DNA of 62,633 bases, the filler included, from Stramenopiles sp. TOSAG23-6 (lineage: Eukaryota): the NCBI GenBank assembly GCA_900128565.1. It is 16 parts of 16 records of this genome, joined end to end, with 100 filler letters (N's around TTAATTAATTAA, not from the genome) between each part and the next. Parts side by side here need not be neighbours in the genome. Positions count along the whole stretch, not along the records: positions 3,941 to 7,777 come from LT637356.1; 15 more parts are not named here. One strand, given 5' to 3'. A program made the translations under genes and the position numbers. The notes beneath the pieces were generated by a model. The model ran no database searches. It saw nothing but the letters and a program-made list of their open reading frames with translations, and was not told the origin of the DNA. Shown here one piece after another: positions 1,687 through 46,738 of the stretch (positions are counted from its first letter, which is position 1; the number at the start of each line of letters is the position of its first letter).

Positions 1687-3363
1687 ATGGATTCTATGTC
1701 ATCTGATACGGCTGCAGGTGTTTGTTCAAGGCGTGAAGTTCAACTCTTCAAAGAAGCTTTTCTGCACTGTTCCAATGGCAAGAAATGGTTATCTTTTGAC
1801 TCTTTTGCTTTAGCTGTTGGAATTCCGATTCCACAAAATATATGCAAAACGAGTAATTTTATACATGCTTTATATCGTCTATACTCTGTAGATAGGTTAG
1901 GTCAGAAAATGGACACCACAGGCTTCGTAAAATGTATGGTACAGTTGGCATCAGGCAATAGACAATCCAAAATGAAACTTTTATTTGAGTTAGCCGACGT
2001 GGATAATGATAAACGTGTTCGAGTGAGTGAACTACTTGATCTTATCCGTGGAATGAAAGTATTATTCACATCACTTGATGGCCAAGAAAGTTCTATAGAT
2101 GATGAAATTTTACAAGAAGTAGTTCAAAAACTATTTCTAACATGTCCTAGTGACAAATCAAAATCAACTAATTCAAAAAATAATGGTAACTCAAAAAATA
2201 ATCAAAAAAAAAGTATCACTTTACCTGAATTTCAACGTGCATTATCAGAAAATGATGGTGTTTTAGAAGCAGCTCTTTCATTCAATTCAACATCTTCTGA
2301 TGAATGCTTCTCTACTCTAGACCGAGTTAATGTTTTAAATACAAAAGTAAACGAAATTCTTGAACATTTTTCTAACCCTAACCCTAGGGTTAATCTTGAA
2401 CAATCTTCAGTTAATGCTACAAAATTGACGTCAATCGATACCCCTAACCCTACCATAATAAAACACAATGAAATGAACAGTACAACAACAAATAGTATGA
2501 ATGAAGAGAATTGTCTTCGAGGATTGATATTATCAAAAAGAATTTCATTAGAGTTAAAATCATTACAACATGATTTATATAAAATTTTAGAATATAACCC
2601 TAACCCTAGAAGGAAAAATAACCCTAACCCTAGAAGGAAAAATAACCCTAACCCTAGAAACCCTAGAAGAAAAAAATGGAATTATCTTTGTGATGGAAAT
2701 ATTTTTCAAATGATACCAAAAATTTCTGGAGATTTTGAAGAAATTGAAAATCCAAAATTACGAACATTATACTTACAAGCAGAAAATGAAAGATTACGTG
2801 TACGTTTTTTTTGTCACATTTTTTTTTTTCATAGTAAAATTTTTCATAGTAAAATTTGTACCTAACGAAAAAAAAAAAAAAAAAAAAAAAATTTTTCAAT
2901 TTTTTTTTCATAGTAAAATTTGTACCTAAAAAAAAAAAAAAAAAATTTCTTCAATTTTTTCACAGTACATAAATTAATCAAACAATATGAAAAAAATCAT
3001 ACCATTTATTCAGAAAACCCTAACCCTAATGTAATTCATTCGATGATAAGTCAATATCGTGTTTATAGTACCGAATTAAATCAACAATGTGATATAAATG
3101 ATTATAGTGAAAACACTGATAATTTGTACTTACGACCTTTGCATACGTATGTTCTATTTATATTTTTTTTTTGAGATTTTTTGTATTTTGAAAATTTTTT
3201 TTTTTTTGAGATTTTTTTTTTTTTGAGAATTTTTTTTTTTTTTTAGAATTTTTTTTTTTTTGAATTTTTTTTTCGTACAAAATTTTGTCCCTAACAAAAA
3301 ATTTTAGATTTTTTTTTAATATTTTTCTACAATATAGTATCCTCATCATTCTCCAATGGATGA
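1687..3363 (+). CDS. EF-hand (calcineurin B/recoverin-like) domain protein, partial; introns 2800-2970 (GT-AT) and 3147-3337 (GT-AG)
   Basis: KMKLLFELADVDNDKRVRVSEL EF-hand motif; frame is kept across both introns. Confidence 0.75.
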
Positions 3364-3407: not shown

Positions 3408-3840
3408 TCATCCATTGGAGAATGATGAGGATACTATATTGTAGAAAAATATTAAAAAAAAATCTAAAATTTTTTGTTAGGGACAAAATTTTGTACGAAA
3501 AAAAAATTCAAAAAAAAAAAAATTCTAAAAAAAAAAAAAAATTCTCAAAAAAAAAAAAATCTCAAAAAAAAAAAAATTTTCAAAATACAAAAAATCTCAA
3601 AAAAAAAATATAAATAGAACATACGTATGCAAAGGTCGTAAGTACAAATTATCAGTGTTTTCACTATAATCATTTATATCACATTGTTGATTTAATTCGG
3701 TACTATAAACACGATATTGACTTATCATCGAATGAATTACATTAGGGTTAGGGTTTTCTGAATAAATGGTATGATTTTTTTCATATTGTTTGATTAATTT
3801 ATGTACTGTGAAAAAATTGAAGAAATTTTTTTTTTTTTTT
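3408..3840. repeat. Exact inverted copy of ~2932-3363 across an N gap (scaffolding artefact)
   Basis: Perfect reverse complement on each side of the N run; identical ORFs in both orientations. Confidence 0.85.
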
Positions 3841-3940
3841 NNNNNNNNNNNNNNNNNNNNNNNNNNNNNNNNNNNNNNNNNNNNTTAATTAATTAANNNN
3901 NNNNNNNNNNNNNNNNNNNNNNNNNNNNNNNNNNNNNNNN

Positions 3941-4190
3941 ATATTCTATTGTACATATTATAATAATACTCTATTGTACATATTATAATAATATTCTATT
4001 GTACATATATCATGTAATATTCTATTGTACATATTATAATAATACTCTATTGTACATATTATAATAATATTCTATTGTACCCTATTCCCATTTATTACAA
4101 ATTATTACAAATTATTACATTTTACATTACATCATGAATTATTACCAATTATTTGCATTTATTACAAATTATTACAAATTATTTTTATTC
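3941..4190. repeat. 25-bp tandem repeat (ATATTCTATTGTACATATTATAATA, ~5.5 copies) followed by TTATTACAAA 10-mers
   Basis: Visible periodicity. Confidence 0.85.
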
Positions 4191-4552
4191 TTCATATTAT
4201 TCATTTGTTTTATATTAGATATATATTGTTGACATTATTGTACAGTTTTTTGGTTTCATGATTGTATAATATATAATAATACTATAATAGATAACAATAT
4301 ATTTTTTGGCGGACCTAATTTATTTATAAACTATAAACCATAATCCTTGGAGATTTACTCTCCCTATTTTTTTTTTTTCCCAATTTTTTTTTACTATAAA
4401 CTATACTGATTTTTTTAAACAATAGGACACTTTACTGTGTCCTGATTTTTTTAAACTTCACTTATCTTGTGGGTGATTTTTTTTTCAAAACAGTCACTTT
4501 ACTGTGACTTGATTTTTTTATAAGACACTTTACTGTGTCTAAGATTGATTAA

Positions 4553-7023
4553 TTATTCCTTTTTCAACCAGCTATATTCCCAAAACTCCCAATCACCACT
4601 ACTAACCAAATTTCTGATTTTGTCTTTCATTTGACCATTAGTTCTTCTTTTTGTACAAGAAAGTTCACACTTGGTCCTTACCTCTTGAAAAAAGGCTGAT
4701 GGTAAATTTTTCTTTGAACCTTTAGGGGGTATTAAACTTCTATTAGATCTTTCAAAAGCTTGTTTAAAGTCTGCTGTTTCTTCAGGTGTCCATTTCCTCC
4801 TCTTTTGCTGTTTTCCTTTTTTTGAAGCAGATTTACTTTTACCAGATGATTTACTTTTACTAGATGATTTAGATGGTGGATTTTCACTAACATATTTAGA
4901 ATAAATTGTCCCAAGTAGTTCATTCATAATTCTTTCTTGATTATCTTCCCAGTTAACAAAGTCAACAAAACGATCCTGAGCAATTTGATAATAAATAGTA
5001 TACTTTCTTTCCAATAATTGAACCCACCACAATGCAAAACTATGAGGACATAAATTGTCAAAGTCATGAAGTGAACTTTCACAATTTTTTGGAATGCCTA
5101 AGGGTACTAAATTACCTTTTACTATATCTTTTCTAAGTATATCAGAAATTTCTCTCTTGAAAACCTTTAAAAGAATAGGAGGTCTTTTTTCAACAAGCAT
5201 AAACTGATTATCTCTTTTAGCTTTATCTTTAACATCATCCCAAACACCATTAACAAAAAAAGAGATTTCATTTATAATCCTAATTGATCTCTTCTTATCA
5301 GTCAATGAATTACCATGAGGTTTAATAACAATACTATGAAACCTCTCAGGATTTTTATAAATATCCAAATGAATAATATTATGCAAAGTCTTATAAGATT
5401 TCAATTGTAATAGATTTTGTTTGTCATCATCTGTCAAATTTCTTGTTTCTTCTTCCTCATCTTTTGAAACAGCATTTATAACATTATTATCATTCTCCAC
5501 AATAATCAAATCACTAAAATCTTCAAAATTTTCAGTACTAGGATTTTTAGGATCAACAAAATCAGAATTTTCAACAAATTCAGAATACTCAGCACTATTA
5601 ATAAAATCATCAAACTCTTTTGAAGATGTAATATAATTACTTACAGCAGCAACATTAAAAAGTCTTGAAAAATGCTTCAAATACTTTGCCAATGTTTTAG
5701 AATCTTCTTTCCATCTATGTTGTCTAACAGTTTCTGGAATTCTTCCCATTACAGATTGATTCTTATTATTCATTAAAAAATTAATTGCCCATTCTAAAAT
5801 ATAACCAGCTCTAAAACCATGTGCAGAAGTCCAACCAAAAGGATATCCTGCAGCATATAATAATTCATGAATATAAGGATTTACTAAAGATGAAGCTTTA
5901 TCATTATCTGTATCAGGTTTCCTAAAGTCATGTAGAAACATGTTTTTTGGAAAAATATTTCAAAGAAAAATTGTTAGGTACAAAATTTCAAAAAAAAAAA
6001 AAATGAATTTGAAAAAAAATAAAACATACAAATTTTCCAAGTTTTTTCCATCACAATTTTTAAAATCACTCAAAATTCCATCTTCAAAGCCTCTATTTAT
6101 AAGAGTCCAATGCAACCAAAATACTAAGTCTATAAATATTTTCTTATGATCAGCAGTCTCATAATAAAGAGAACCTTCATAATCAATCTCATGACTAAAT
6201 CCAAATTCTTCACCTTTTGTGTGTTCATATGTAATAGTAACTTGAATTTTAGTATCAATATTAATTTCAGAAACATCTTTACCTTCTCTTCTATATTTTT
6301 GCTTTAAATAATTATATCTTCTTAATCTTTTAATAACATTTTCTTTATCATGTACTTTAACATTTTTAAGCTCTACTTTAGCATTTGTAGCCATCATTCT
6401 ATGTCCATTTATTAAACTGTGAAGACATATACAATATATTTTAGGTCCTTGTGGAGTTGAAATATATTGATTTATAATCATACCTTTCATATACATATTC
6501 CACATATCTTTATACAGTATTGCTGCAGCTCCCACAGAATCTTTATATTGTTCAGGTAATAATTGAAGATTAGGATCTCCATTAGTTTTTTTAGATTCTT
6601 GAAGAATTGATGTCATATATACTGAAATTGCTTTAAATGCTCCTTCAGGGGTAGGTAACACTGTATAATCTTTCCATATGATATTTTTTGTCATTATATA
6701 TTTCAACTTGTTCACATACATATCTTTAAAGCTATTATACTTCATTCTTTTTTTTTTCCCAAGTAACAAATTGACATTAACATAAAATCTGATAAAATCT
6801 ACATGCATTCTTCCACCATCTCCAAGAACTATATCTTCATCTTTAACATGTGGGTTTTCTAACAAAAATTGTTCTTTACACATTTCTGTAAACTCTGTGA
6901 AAGAATTTTCAACTGTTGCATATTTTTTTTTTGCATTATTTGTAAAATTAGGCAAAGGAGGTTGTGCAGCAAAGTTTATCATACTAGATGGGATACCATC
7001 TAATAAATTCCTGGATTGTCTTG
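4553..7023 (-). CDS. Tyrosine recombinase-like protein with C-terminal telobox-type Myb domain (779 aa from Met at 6982); GT-AT intron 5940-6029
   Basis: Candidate catalytic motifs in YR order: INGHR, HTKG, AHGFRAG (HxxR), HRW...LAKY. C-terminus RRKWTPEE...RTNGQMKDKIRNL. Frame is open back to an intron-type 3' end at 7024. Confidence 0.7.
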
Positions 7024-7074
7024 ATGTATTTTGGAAAAATATTTCAAAAAAAAAATATTAAAAATATTGTTACT

Positions 7075-7270
7075 AGGAAATTTCAAAAATACTGATGAAA
7101 AAAATTTCAAAAATATGACTAAAAAAATTTTCAAAAATATCACTGAAAAAAATTTCAAAAATATCACTGAAAAAAATTTCAAAAATATGGATGAAAAAAA
7201 TTTCAAAAATATGACTGAAAAAAATTTCAAAAATATGACGAAAAAAAATTTCAAAAATACGGATGAAAAA
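7075..7270. repeat. 21-bp tandem repeat (AAATTTCAAAAATATGACTGA-like, ~9 copies)
   Basis: Visible periodicity; produces the spurious KNFKN-type ORFs. Confidence 0.9.
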
Positions 7271-7497
7271 TACTACAAAGCATATTCAATTATTAAATTG
7301 TAATAATATAACAGGAAAAAAGTAAAATTGTATGTAAATAAATGGTACAAAAGTACAAGGATTTCTATATAAATGGTACAAAGTACAATCATTTCTATAT
7401 AAATGGTAAGAGTAAGATTTAATATTATATAAATGGTATAAATGGTATAGAGATATTTTTATTTGTATAAATTCATAAATTAAATATAATTAATAAT

Positions 7498-7572
7498 TGC
7501 ACATGGCAGGATTCGAACCGGCGCCCTCAGAAATTTCTGGAGGACCACCAACCTACTATGCCAGACTGGTGC
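7498..7572 (-). ncRNA. tRNA-like / Pol III type-2 promoter element (degenerate, no anticodon loop)
   Basis: A-box-like TGGCATAGTAGG, B-box GGTTCGAATCC, GCAC...GTGCA ends; anticodon arm is a loopless palindrome CAGAAATTTCTG. Confidence 0.55.
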
Positions 7573-7931
7573 TGAAATTTCGCAATTTGAATCTGCTTAT
7601 ATATAAAGAATAATTTTTAGTAATTTTGAGATATTTGTTATAGTTGCATATTTTTTTTGATATTTGTATGTATCTGATATAATTTGCATTGTTAAATTCA
7701 TAAAATTGTAACAAATGATGTTATTGCATTGATACACAAAAAAAAAAAAAAAATTAGGAACAAAATTTACTATGAAANNNNNNNNNNNNNNNNNNNNNNN
7801 NNNNNNNNNNNNNNNNNNNNNTTAATTAATTAANNNNNNNNNNNNNNNNNNNNNNNNNNNNNNNNNNNNNNNNNNNNGTACGAAATTTTGTACCTAACGA
7901 TTTTTTTTTGAAATATTTTTCCAAAATACAT

Positions 7932-11549: not shown

Positions 11550-11955
11550 ATTAAATATCTAATTTATGTGACTATTGAATATAAAAAAGTGATCCTCGAA
11601 TTTAGAATTTCAAAAATTTCAAAAATTCAAATTTTTGAATCATTTCAAGAACACACTTTTAAGGTAGTCGGGTAAATCTGAGCAGATTTGTCCACGGGCG
11701 ATATTCCAAAACTNNNNNNNNNNNNNNNNNNNNNNNNNNNNNNNNNNNNNNNNNNNNTTAATTAATTAANNNNNNNNNNNNNNNNNNNNNNNNNNNNNNN
11801 NNNNNNNNNNNNNCAAACATGCTGCTTTTAGACGCTGGAGTTGACTCGCTCCACGGCTCGCTCGAAAAAAGCAAGTTCATAACAGAAATGACACTTTCAT
11901 CATTTAACAATTAAAGTTAAAACGTAAAGTACAAATAATTTGAACACTACAAACT

Positions 11956-15649: not shown

Positions 15650-15854
15650 NNNNNNNNNNNNNNNNNNNNNNNNNNNNNNNNNNNNNNNNNNNNTTAATTA
15701 ATTAANNNNNNNNNNNNNNNNNNNNNNNNNNNNNNNNNNNNNNNNNNNNTTTTGAAAAAAATTTAAAAAAAAAAAACAAAAATTCGTTAGGGAAAAAATT
15801 TCTTACAAAAAAAAAATTCGAATTTAAAAAAAAAAAAAAAAAAAAAAAACATAC

Positions 15855-17401
15855 CTGCTCCATTTGTACTTGACAATTTTGATAAATGTCCCGCAGTTTC
15901 TTCTAAATTCAAAGCATCAATTCCATATTTTTGTAAAGTTGTCTGAAATCCTTGTTTTGCTTCTTCGATTTCAGATTTTGATAATATATCTGGAATGACT
16001 AAAACACCATCTCGTTTGAATGTATTAATTTGTTCAATTGTGAGAAATCGTAAATTTTTTTTTTTCGTTACATTAGGGTTAGGGTTTATTTTTTTTTTCA
16101 AATTGTTCGTTACATTAGGGTTAGGGTTTATTTTTTTTTTCAAATTCTTCGTTAAAATCTCGATTTTTTTATGAATATCAGGTAAAGGTATAGAAATATC
16201 ATCATTTGTTTGTGTAGTAGGGTTAGGGTTATATTCAATATTTTTAGTTTTTAAATTTTTAGTTTTTAAATTTTTAGTTTTTAAATTTTTAGTTTTTTCT
16301 TGAAGTTTTAAAAGTCGTTTTTGTCGTCTAAATTCTTTTAATGGTAATCTTGTAGTACCTAAAGAAGATTTCGTGTGTAGTTCCTTTGAACGACTAGGGT
16401 TAGGGTTATTTTTTTTTGAACTATAGTTTGTATTTTCATGTTTTAAAATGTCATTTAATACTCTCAATATTTCTGCATTTGGTTCATTCTTTCCATTATA
16501 TCTGGAATGAACAAATAATATCTCTGAAGAATTAGGGTTAGGGTTTTGAATATTTGTAAGAACGTTTCGGAATCGAATCAACGTAAATGCATTTTTATCT
16601 CTTCCAAACATTTGACATGTATTGTAAAAAAAATTAAATTCGAAATCGGTTAGGTACAAAATTTCGTACGAAAAAAAATAAATTTGAAATTCATAATGAA
16701 AACGTACTTCATAATGAAAACGTACGAGATTCTTCTAGAAAATTTGCATTTTTATATACTATATTGTACAAGAATATTTCAAATTTGAAATTGGTTTAGT
16801 AAACACATCAAAAAATAAAAAAATAATATCAAAAAATATATGATTTGTATAAAGTATGGAGAAAAAAATATATGAAAAAATGAGACATACACTCATGGGC
16901 AGGAATCATCATACCTAAAGAGTCCAAGACAATGTCATCATAATTGTTAGCACTACAAAAATTGATCACTATGCGTAACAAACGCTTTGCTATACCTTGT
17001 CGTCTATATGACCGTTTTACACACATATGTTTAAGCTCTGCTGTACTTTGGACTTGTTTTTCTTGAACTTGTCTATTTGCGTTTGGGGGGTTTTGTTTCA
17101 TTACCGCACAACAACCGATAATCACTTCACCATCCGACTCATTTACGACAGCAACCCAAAATGAATTACAAGATACATCAATAAATCGACGTATTACTGT
17201 AGAAGCAGATGCAAGGTCAAGTTTTAGCTGTCTTTTTACGAATTTTATTATTGAAGTGTTACCGTCACTAATGTCTAACATTGATTTTGCAAATAGTTCC
17301 CGTACGCCAACGATATCCTCAATAGCAAAAGGACGAAACGAAACGGGTACAGAATTATCGCATATACCATTCGCTGGACTATTTTCTTTTGAAACTATCA
17401 T
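15855..17401 (-). CDS. GNAT acetyltransferase joined to a PhyH-like dioxygenase N-terminus, partial; introns 16759-16890 (GT-AG) and 16617-16725 (GT-AT)
   Basis: AELKHMCV..YRRQGIAKRL, spliced AHELYKNANF; downstream FLTIEQINTFKRDGVLVIPDILS. Confidence 0.7.
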
Positions 17402-45069: not shown

Positions 45070-46738
45070 CTATACCCATTCTTTTGGTTTACCTTGAAGT
45101 AAATCCAATGTTTTTTTTTCTGGACTATCCAACTCAGGAATATTTTTATACTCATAACGGACAGTAAGTGGAAGTGACATTAATACTGCTTCAATATCAA
45201 CACCAGGTACATGTATTTTGAAAAAATATTTCAAAAAAAAATTTGAAAAAATTGTTAGGTACAAAATTTCGTACGAAAAAAAANAAAAAAATTCGNAANT
45301 NAAAAAAAAATAAAACATACAGCATATCCAAATTTCGTACCTCGATCATATACCAAGTTAAATTCAACATACCGACCATGCCTTAATGCTTGCCATTCTT
45401 TTTCTTTAGTAGTGTATGGCATATTCATTCGTTTTAATAAAATAGGCCAATAACAAGGAACAAAAGCTTTTACACAATCTTGTACAAACGATAAAGATGA
45501 TGATTGTAGAGTTTGTTCATTTGGTGTAAGTAGTGTGAAACGATATTTTAAATTCGAAATTCGTTAGGTACAAAATTTCGTACGAAAAAAAAATAAATTT
45601 GAAATTCATGATGGAAACGTACAATTCTACTAGAATCATCTCGATGTGAAAGAAACGAAAGTGCACTATTTACTTTTTCATTATTTGTATTATTATTTAC
45701 TTTTTCATTATTTGTATTATTATTTGTTGTAACTGTATTCGTTTGTGATTTATATTGGTGAATATTCGTGAAATCGTCAAAAAATATTCCTCCAATGCCT
45801 CTCGCTTCTGCTCTTGCTTTGTTATAAAAATGTATTTTGGAAAAATATTTCAAAAAAAATTCAAAAAAAATTGTTAGGTACAAAATTTTGTAAGAAAAAA
45901 AAAAAAAATTAAAACATACATATGTATCACAATCAGTTTTCATTATTGAGTATCGACTTTTAGTACTATTGTCATTTTTATCATGTTTATCACAGACATT
46001 TTTTAACGTTTTATGAAAATGTTTTGCATCGTCTTCAAATAAATAAATCGGAGTTAAATCAGTTCCTCCTCCAAACCACCAAGAAACAACTTCATCATCA
46101 TCATCTGTTATTTCAAAATATCTATAATTAAAATGTACAGTGGGTGCCATTGGATTGACTGGATGTAATATCCCACTTAACCCACACACCCACATTTGTA
46201 AATTAGGGTCACTTTCATGGCTAGGTTGTGTATTACAAGTTTGCTCTTTCTTTTCTACCTTTTTATCCATTTTTCGCTTTTGAAGTTTTTCGCGCAACTG
46301 AGGATGATTTGCAGACATTTGTCGAATAATTGCTGGTGTAAGTGAGCGTGTCATGACTGTGAGACCAACTCCAGCTTTTTCAAAAACTCGACCATCTTGT
46401 AAAACTGCAGTTAACTTGAGAGCTCGTTTAGACGATTTATCACGGCGCCATGTTACAATTTTCGTATCATCTGGAGCAGCAATAGACGCAGCTTTATCTT
46501 CTAATGAAGCAACACGATTGCATATATCGTGCTGTACCTGTACTAGTGTATTAATCATGGCTCTACGTGTGCTATTATTTCGAGATAAGTCGTTGCCTCC
46601 AAGAAAGTCTGACAATGTTGACGTATCGTCAGGGAGTGCAGGCGCACTACAACTACAATTGTCTGAATATTGACTTGTTGCATATATAGAGACGCCAGCA
46701 ATAGCTGACGATGCAAATAACATACATCTTGAAGTCAT
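45070..46738 (-). CDS. CPOX: Oxygen-dependent coproporphyrinogen III oxidase (divergent); introns 45830-45919 (GT-AT), 45528-45622 (GT-TT), 45211-45320 (GT-AT)
   Basis: [63 protein letters not shown]. Confidence 0.9.

Follow-up and report, generated by a model that had tools for sequence, protein, structure and literature searches.

Gene Structure

The stretch of DNA analysed here (the window), 62,633 nucleotides from Stramenopiles sp. TOSAG23-6 (assembly GCA_900128565.1), carries on its minus strand, within the contig LT637356.1, a gene whose product holds a block resembling tyrosine recombinases (YRs) and a C-terminal tail resembling Myb/SANT domains. The transcription unit (4553..7023) begins with a 5′ untranslated region (5′ UTR) exon and ends at the stop codon (4553–4555). 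Two open frames, 5960..7057 and 4553..5959, share one phase, and the coding sequence comprises 953 nt (from the ATG at 6982 to 6030) plus 1384 nt (5939–4556), a total of 2337 nt or 779 codons. The spliced open reading frame (ORF) of 779 residues given in a preliminary description of this DNA is thus confirmed. Open frames of 318 and 461 codons in DNA of 24–27% GC support a real coding gene.

Coding exon 1 (6030..6982) starts at M1 and breaks off after two bases of the L318 codon; it comprises an N-terminal, mostly helical part of approximately 170 residues, followed by the initial half of the YR-like region. Coding exon 2 (4556..5939) supplies the third base of that codon and continues from F319 to E779. 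The intervening 90 nt (5940..6029), in frame, start with GTATGT, end with AACAT (GT...AT), and include a stop codon, so that this segment must be spliced out. It represents one copy (GTATGT...AAATTTTGTACCTAAC...AATATTTTTCCAAAAAACAT) of a family of repeated introns, or introners, of this genome. The same unit sits in frame within the coproporphyrinogen oxidase (CPOX) gene of another contig (45830–45919), where excision of exactly GTATGT...ATACAT (90 nt) regains the conserved C-D-x-Y / F-Y junction, as in the yeast enzyme, which indicates that the organism does remove this unit. An alternative splicing of the GT-AG type to the AG at 5922–5923 also keeps the frame, but it removes an LF motif and mismatches the unit whose removal restores CPOX, and it was rejected.

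Just upstream of the ATG lies a degenerate introner copy (7024..7091, minus strand), probably an intron of the 5′ UTR. Its 3′ end at 7024, where repeat ends accumulate, is firm and its 5′ end approximate; the base that follows the 3′ end is 7023. Since host introners are found both in the coding sequence and in the 5′ region, the gene belongs to this nuclear genome, as had been proposed from its GT-AT intron. The gene is real and intact, carries introns, and has resided in this organism's nuclear DNA for long enough to acquire introners of the host type.

Tyrosine Recombinase Signature

Starting from Cre of phage P1, 51 relatives were collected, and the YR-like region was aligned by MAFFT with eight Cre-family proteins from this set and lambda Int. 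In this alignment, five residues of a block resembling YR box II (5681..5821, minus strand) fall on invariant Cre columns: H358 (5819–5821), R361 (5810–5812), G363, W394 (5711–5713), and Y404 (5681–5683) are placed on Cre H289, R292, G294, W315, and Y324, respectively, with one insert of 10 residues, located before an IPE motif. Within the first 110 residues encoded by exon 2, S-A-H-G-F-R-A-G is set on the S-G-H-S-A-R-V-G of the Cre family, R-I-P-E-T-V-R-Q-H-R-W on S-I-P-E-I-M-Q-A-G-G-W, and K-Y-L-K on N-Y-I-R. As for the exon-1 piece, H-T-K-G aligns with R-T-K-T, and K256 (6215–6217, minus strand) falls on the column of the invariant Cre K201, at a predicted beta-hairpin. The LF at the exon junction, formed only by GT...AT splicing, aligns with the conserved LF of the Cre relatives, where F239 is invariant.

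Four other pieces of 110 residues, two from the same protein and two from other genes, served as decoys, and each of them matched one of the five columns (the Trp), whereas the real piece matched all five. The succession of HxxRxG and, 20–45 residues further on, W-x(8-11)-Y-[ILV]-[RK] has a chance frequency of about 5e-5 for a protein of such length, a rough hand estimate from assumed amino-acid frequencies. A language-model look-up in the Atlas with residues 319–428 placed 18 of the 30 listed neighbours in Phage_integrase (PF00589) clusters, eukaryotic ones from sponges and cnidarians, with top scores of 0.95 and 0.94; shuffled proteins reach 0.95 about once in 100. On these indirect indications, the protein is probably a tyrosine recombinase.

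The C-Terminal Tail

The Myb/SANT-like region (4604..4801, minus strand) spans residues 698–763 (RRKW...RTNGQMKDKIRNL) and is preceded by a linker rich in Lys and Ser. A Pfam scan of the last 95 residues aligned residues 698–763 with positions 1–63 of the 89 of Myb_DNA-bind_4 (PF13837), with an E-value of 0.0053; the score, 17.6 bits, lies below the cut-off (27). Named Atlas neighbours of the tail are mostly of the Myb type, with scores of 0.86 for Myb_Rap1 and 0.81 for Myb_DNA-binding, and the ten best matches that bear a family all share one family or clan. Helices are predicted at residues ~703–718, 732–748, and 753–765, as in a Myb repeat, at a predicted local distance difference test (pLDDT) score below 55. 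A Myb/SANT-like domain is therefore a likely, though weakly supported, assignment for this tail.

Between the recombinase-like region and the tail, an acidic, probably disordered linker (residues ~415–495) is followed by a middle region (4841..5401, minus strand) that matches no family at E ≤ 10 and in which helices are predicted at low confidence.

The contig holds no other ORF of at least 50 residues with coding character, and no reverse transcriptase (RT), RNase H, or Gag. This bears out, for a contig of just 3.8 kb, the earlier statement that RT and Gag are absent, and makes the proposed placement of the gene as Crypton-like rather than DIRS-like a reasonable one. A YR as the sole enzyme, with neither RT nor DDE transposase, is the arrangement used to recognise Cryptons and, on the YR reading, the one found on this contig. 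A diverged, stand-alone Crypton-like tyrosine recombinase carrying a Myb/SANT-like DNA-binding tail is accordingly the reading that we favour, with chances that we put at about even.

Absence of Relatives

The protein has no detectable relatives. Neither frame gave a relevant match in Pfam, and PHROGs and NCBIfam returned only noise. Word-seeded protein searches yielded no match for the exon-1 frame among proteins of near length, and none at E ≤ 10 for residues 8–115 of the exon-2 product; collections of 15 billion predicted proteins likewise lack it. Scans of metagenome contigs and of a viral contig collection with both halves found no relative, and a tblastn search of phages with residues 319–428 produced one noise family (E = 7). 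AlphaFold2 models built without an alignment had a pLDDT of 42 for exon 1 and 37 for residues 503–779, and both were discarded after Foldseek found no match at E ≤ 0.001. A YR fold is not predictable in this case because relatives for an alignment are lacking and because the intron interrupts the catalytic region.

Expression and Environmental Variants

PolyA-library contigs from two runs (X3 and X4) of a single seawater metatranscriptome study cover parts of both exons (4666–5583, 6053–6241, and 6849–6998) and of the 3′ UTR at 93–99% identity, although DNA may be present in such libraries. Other parts of the gene have no RNA contig, and none of the metatranscriptome contigs spans the intron at 5940–6029. 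The RNA contigs differ from the gene by 26 bases in 20 codons, several of the differences being adjacent double substitutions, and 19 of the 20 codons change the amino acid while one is silent; these are small numbers from shallow contigs, with codons mapped by hand. In a marine DNA run, both of the two changed codons are also amino-acid-changing. This pattern fits a fast-evolving or selfish gene rather than a strongly constrained host gene, within the limits of such small numbers.

Surroundings of the Gene

Pairs of 44 N flanking TTAATTAATTAA recur along the window (3841–3940, 7778–7877, 11714–11813, and so on) at a spacing shrinking steadily from 3937 to 3903, which shows it to consist of separate contigs of approximately 3.9 kb, linked end to end and sorted by length. 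Genes across these linkers belong to other contigs and their adjacency is meaningless, so that neighbouring window genes were rejected as context for the recombinase-like gene. Its true context is the contig at 3941–7777 alone (~3.8 kb).

Three palindromes with the core CAC-TTTACT-GTG (4425..4540) lie 13–128 nt past the stop codon, with arms of at least 6 bp and a 6-bp spacer. The core occurs in three exact copies beside the gene and nowhere else in the window, and the region folds more stably than its shuffled versions (z = −4.45; none of 200 shuffles was as stable). The palindromes could be recombinase or Myb sites, or equally 3′-end RNA signals, with AGTAAA as the loop in the mRNA.

Tandem arrays are found on both sides of the gene. 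The upstream ones (7078..7449) comprise repeats of 24 bp (8 copies), 30 bp (2.3 copies), and 9 bp (2.4 copies), the 24-bp array resembling the 3′ part of the introner, and those downstream (3941..4183) comprise repeats of 25 bp (5.6 copies) and 10 bp (9.5 copies) and extend as far as the end of the contig. Downstream, TTGTAC motifs have the opposite orientation to those of the upstream 30-bp array.

A degenerate tRNA-like sequence (7503–7575, minus strand) lies 480 bp upstream of the gene and shows a GGTTCGAATCC T-loop, an imperfect acceptor stem, and an odd anticodon arm; it was called neither by ARAGORN nor by Rfam, and it folds no better than shuffles (z = −1.0). Word depth in the best DNA run (X1) is 335 over 4300–5964 and 184 over 6020–7048, but 9–22 over 7264–7700 of the same assembled contig. 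Contig word depth is not copy number, and run X1 is small and very uneven, so that the step could reflect either unevenness of amplification or extra copies of the gene segment.

Comparison with Known Systems

Among the closest known systems is CryptonF. According to the 2011 survey of Kojima and Jurka (PMC3212892), CryptonF elements of fungi and oomycetes encode a YR with a C-terminal GCR1_C DNA-binding domain, which provides a precedent for a YR followed by such a domain in one protein; direct repeats of 6 bp mark the termini of these elements. Like them, the present gene would hold both parts in a single protein and be of low copy number, has no RT, and has introns, which are possible in CryptonF. 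Unlike them, it has no GCR1_C match, its tail being Myb/SANT-like instead, and it lacks detectable sequence similarity to any family. CryptonS elements, from stramenopiles (oomycetes and a diatom), are described in the same survey as a YR followed by a C-terminal region that is conserved but has no known function, and they typically have TATGG termini; the present gene could be set beside them as a YR-only element of a protist. No DUF3504 match, nor any other Pfam match that would cluster the protein with known Cryptons, was obtained. The word "Myb" has no occurrence in the survey, and our literature searches found no description of a YR–Myb fusion.

The Cre/loxP and Flp/FRT systems share with this protein the K, H-x-x-R, W, and Y on the Cre columns. 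The three palindromes with 6-bp spacers beside the gene have the general layout of YR core sites, which the survey gives as inverted repeats of 11–13 bp around 6–8 bp (PMC3212892). However, hhalign lends no support to the likeness, the perfect palindrome arms measure just 6 bp, and the protein has an additional C-terminal extension of ~370 residues and is encoded by a eukaryotic nuclear gene with introns.

Two further groups of eukaryotic elements invite comparison. DIRS and Ngaro elements encode YRs with the same W...Y ending, but the present contig holds no ORF for RT, RNase H, or Gag, and the gene has introns. In PIF/Harbinger elements, the second ORF is a Myb/SANT-like (trihelix/MADF-type) DNA-binding partner of the transposase. 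A Myb_DNA-bind_4-like module could similarly recruit a recombinase to repeats near the element ends; here, in contrast, the module would be fused to a YR rather than paired with a DDE transposase, and the domain match is below threshold.

Proposed Mechanism and Alternative Readings

If the favoured Crypton-like reading is right, the protein would consist of an N-terminal helical region (residues ~1–170), a catalytic region (residues ~180–410) split by the introner, the acidic linker, a region of unknown function, the linker rich in Lys and Ser, and a C-terminal three-helix domain of the Myb/SANT type (residues ~698–775). The tail, and probably also the N-terminal region, would bring the enzyme to specific DNA, the candidate targets being the three CAC-TTTACT-GTG palindromes and the flanking tandem arrays. 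Y404 would then attack the DNA backbone, aided by K256, H358, R361, and W394, and strand exchange would proceed as in Cre and Flp. Such a gene, whether or not it still moves, may be a low-copy selfish element or may have been domesticated by the host.

Several results weigh against a Crypton-like recombinase with a DNA-binding tail. The first catalytic Arg was not placed by the alignment, where MAFFT sets a Gln on the column of Cre R173, and R195 (6398–6400) is a candidate by eye only; the catalytic order announced in the preliminary description holds, in order and in register, for K256, the HxxR at 358–361, W394, and Y404, and the decoys fail. In Pfam, PHROGs, and NCBIfam alike, neither half of the protein gave an integrase match, even at E ≤ 10, and hhalign against a 21-sequence profile of the Cre family gave a probability below 1% for either half, so that no significant match to a profile of the superfamily (PF00589) was obtained. 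A phmmer search of 1.84 billion representative proteins with exon 2 (E ≤ 0.001) and one of the PDB returned no match. The Atlas neighbours of residues 319–428 share just 140–148 of 256 features, typical of chance or of distant relatives, and the first-ranked one belongs to an unnamed bacterial cluster. Regarding the tail, the PF13837 match stays below the Pfam cut-off and is absent when the whole exon-2 product is scanned at E ≤ 1, and the Atlas scores, all below 0.9, are rated as leads only. The predominance of nonsynonymous changes (19 of 20 codons) argues against strong constraint, and one environmental transcript variant, mapped by hand, has lost the first Trp of the Myb-like motif (W701R). 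As for mobility of the Crypton type, which would be marked by several copies with defined ends, short terminal direct repeats of 4–6 bp, and empty sites, one copy is seen and no termini are defined; the window contains a single copy of the gene, and no divergent second copy was found in the best DNA run.

Much of this is what would be expected of a fast-evolving orphan protein of unknown fold, in which the YR-like and Myb-like motifs are products of chance or convergence with no role in recombination. All the homology tests that provide statistics failed, the single-sequence AlphaFold models were poor, the Atlas scores and shared-feature counts lie within reach of shuffled or chance matches, and the environmental differences nearly all change amino acids. 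Nevertheless, five invariant Cre columns and that of K201 are matched in order and spacing by the real protein, while the four decoys matched the Trp alone, the motif is rare by the rough hand estimate given above, and the two independent domain leads make a sensible pair, a recombinase and a DNA-binding tail. We hold the orphan explanation to be a serious but clearly less probable one. Far more improbable is a viral or episomal origin, in which the gene, instead of being a transposon or host gene, would provide an integrated virus (a polinton-like virus, for instance), or else a 2-micron-type multicopy episome of the nucleus, with its integrase or resolvase. The higher word depth over the gene than over its upstream flank, the tandem arrays bracketing it with palindromes adjoining, which recall Flp/FRT/STB, and the degenerate tRNA-like sequence would suit such an origin. 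Against it, the depth step may be an amplification artefact of a small and uneven run, neither half has relatives in viral contigs or in PHROGs, the contig holds no other viral or plasmid gene, and the tRNA-like piece was not called by either program.

The preliminary description had labelled the tail a telobox of the TRF type, which would bind (TTAGGG)n and steer integration or rearrangement to telomere-like dimers, and this we consider the least probable of the readings weighed here. Like the telobox of TRF1 and TRF2, the tail has a three-helix Myb-like layout, and its helix 3 contains K-D-K-x-R-N; its best Atlas neighbour is a Rap1-Myb cluster, and the window has 15 copies of (TTAGGG)2 where none would be expected. 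The telobox domain is about 55 residues long, with V-D-L-K-D-K-W-R-N/T as its helix-3 signature. Helix 3 of the tail, in contrast, reads N-G-Q-M-K-D-K-I-R-N, which has K-D-K and R-N in common with that signature but lacks V-D-L and replaces the Trp by Ile, and the spacing of ~50 residues from helix 1 to helix 3 is longer than in the telobox domain. At E ≤ 10, no match was found to PF00249, which we take to be the family holding the TRF Myb domains, nor to any PDB chain, including those of the TRF, Taz1, and plant telobox proteins, the sole family match being the sub-threshold one to Myb_DNA-bind_4. The W701R variant also speaks against a telobox. Finally, although TTAGGG dimers are indeed numerous in the window, as the preliminary description stated, the contig of the gene (3941–7777) has none, the others being on unrelated contigs. 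Nothing marks the tail as being of the telobox type, and both the label and the proposed targeting of telomeric motifs are left unsupported.

An extension of the Crypton-like reading, which we regard as unlikely, would make the whole contig a self-contained module for site-specific recombination, in which a Crypton-like YR is guided by its fused Myb/SANT-like domain, the palindromes are the crossover sites, and the arrays are the binding platform, the module moving or amplifying as a circle. For a circular module, the fall in depth from 335 and 184 to 9–22 at the upstream array would mean extra copies. A module of this kind would be one undescribed in eukaryotes.

If both domain calls hold, an uncultured marine protist with introners throughout its other genes would possess a YR that has acquired a tail of the Myb/SANT type, much as fungal Cryptons pair a YR with GCR1_C. 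This combination, weakly supported so far, is a moderately unusual one; it would add to the ways by which YR elements of eukaryotes are known to locate DNA, and would offer a compact candidate pair of recombinase and site.

The Introner Family

The introner core (AAATTTTGTACCTAAC) has 57 copies in the 62.6-kb window and the 3′ end (AATATTTTTCCAAAATACAT) has 29, each against 0.16 expected. Family members measure ~70–130 nt and occur about once per kb in the window; examples are found at 5940–6029 (−), 45830–45919 (−), and 7878–7931 (+). In the best DNA run, introner segments reach a word depth of 5e4–5e5, compared to 184–335 for the exons of the recombinase-like gene.

When 16 copies are aligned, their flanks lose all similarity directly after ...ACAT. 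The ends of the unit are short and inverted (ATGTAT...ATACAT), with AT as the usual neighbour on either side. The unit can be read as bounded by GT...AT or equally by AT...AC, not by GT...AG; AT precedes most of the readable 5′ ends, and in those cases both choices yield an identical mRNA. In the recombinase-like gene it is TT that precedes the copy, which speaks for GT...AT.

The YR was also considered as the mobiliser of the introners, and this was rejected, as their short inverted ends point to a transposon of the terminal inverted repeat (TIR) type and not to a Crypton. Introners are mostly derived from TIR transposons and rarely from Cryptons, according to one report (PMC12130899), and non-canonical introners with inverted ends are described for Amoebophrya in another (PMC7789003). 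The present case illustrates how non-canonical introners conceal genes from standard gene callers.

Other Observations in the Window

Copies of (TTAGGG)2 are located at 478, 3018, 3742, 15205, 16073, 16115, 16532, 29608–30687, 39655, 40252, and 52060. Many of them lie inside long ORFs, such as 15787..16734 (−) and 28746..31310 (−), with CCCTAACCCTAA as the sense-strand sequence, which encodes N-P-N-P. A perfect inverted duplication, in which the same ~380 bases at 2980–3363 and 3408–3790 stand in opposite orientations around an N run, counts one of the dimers twice and looks like an amplification or assembly chimera.

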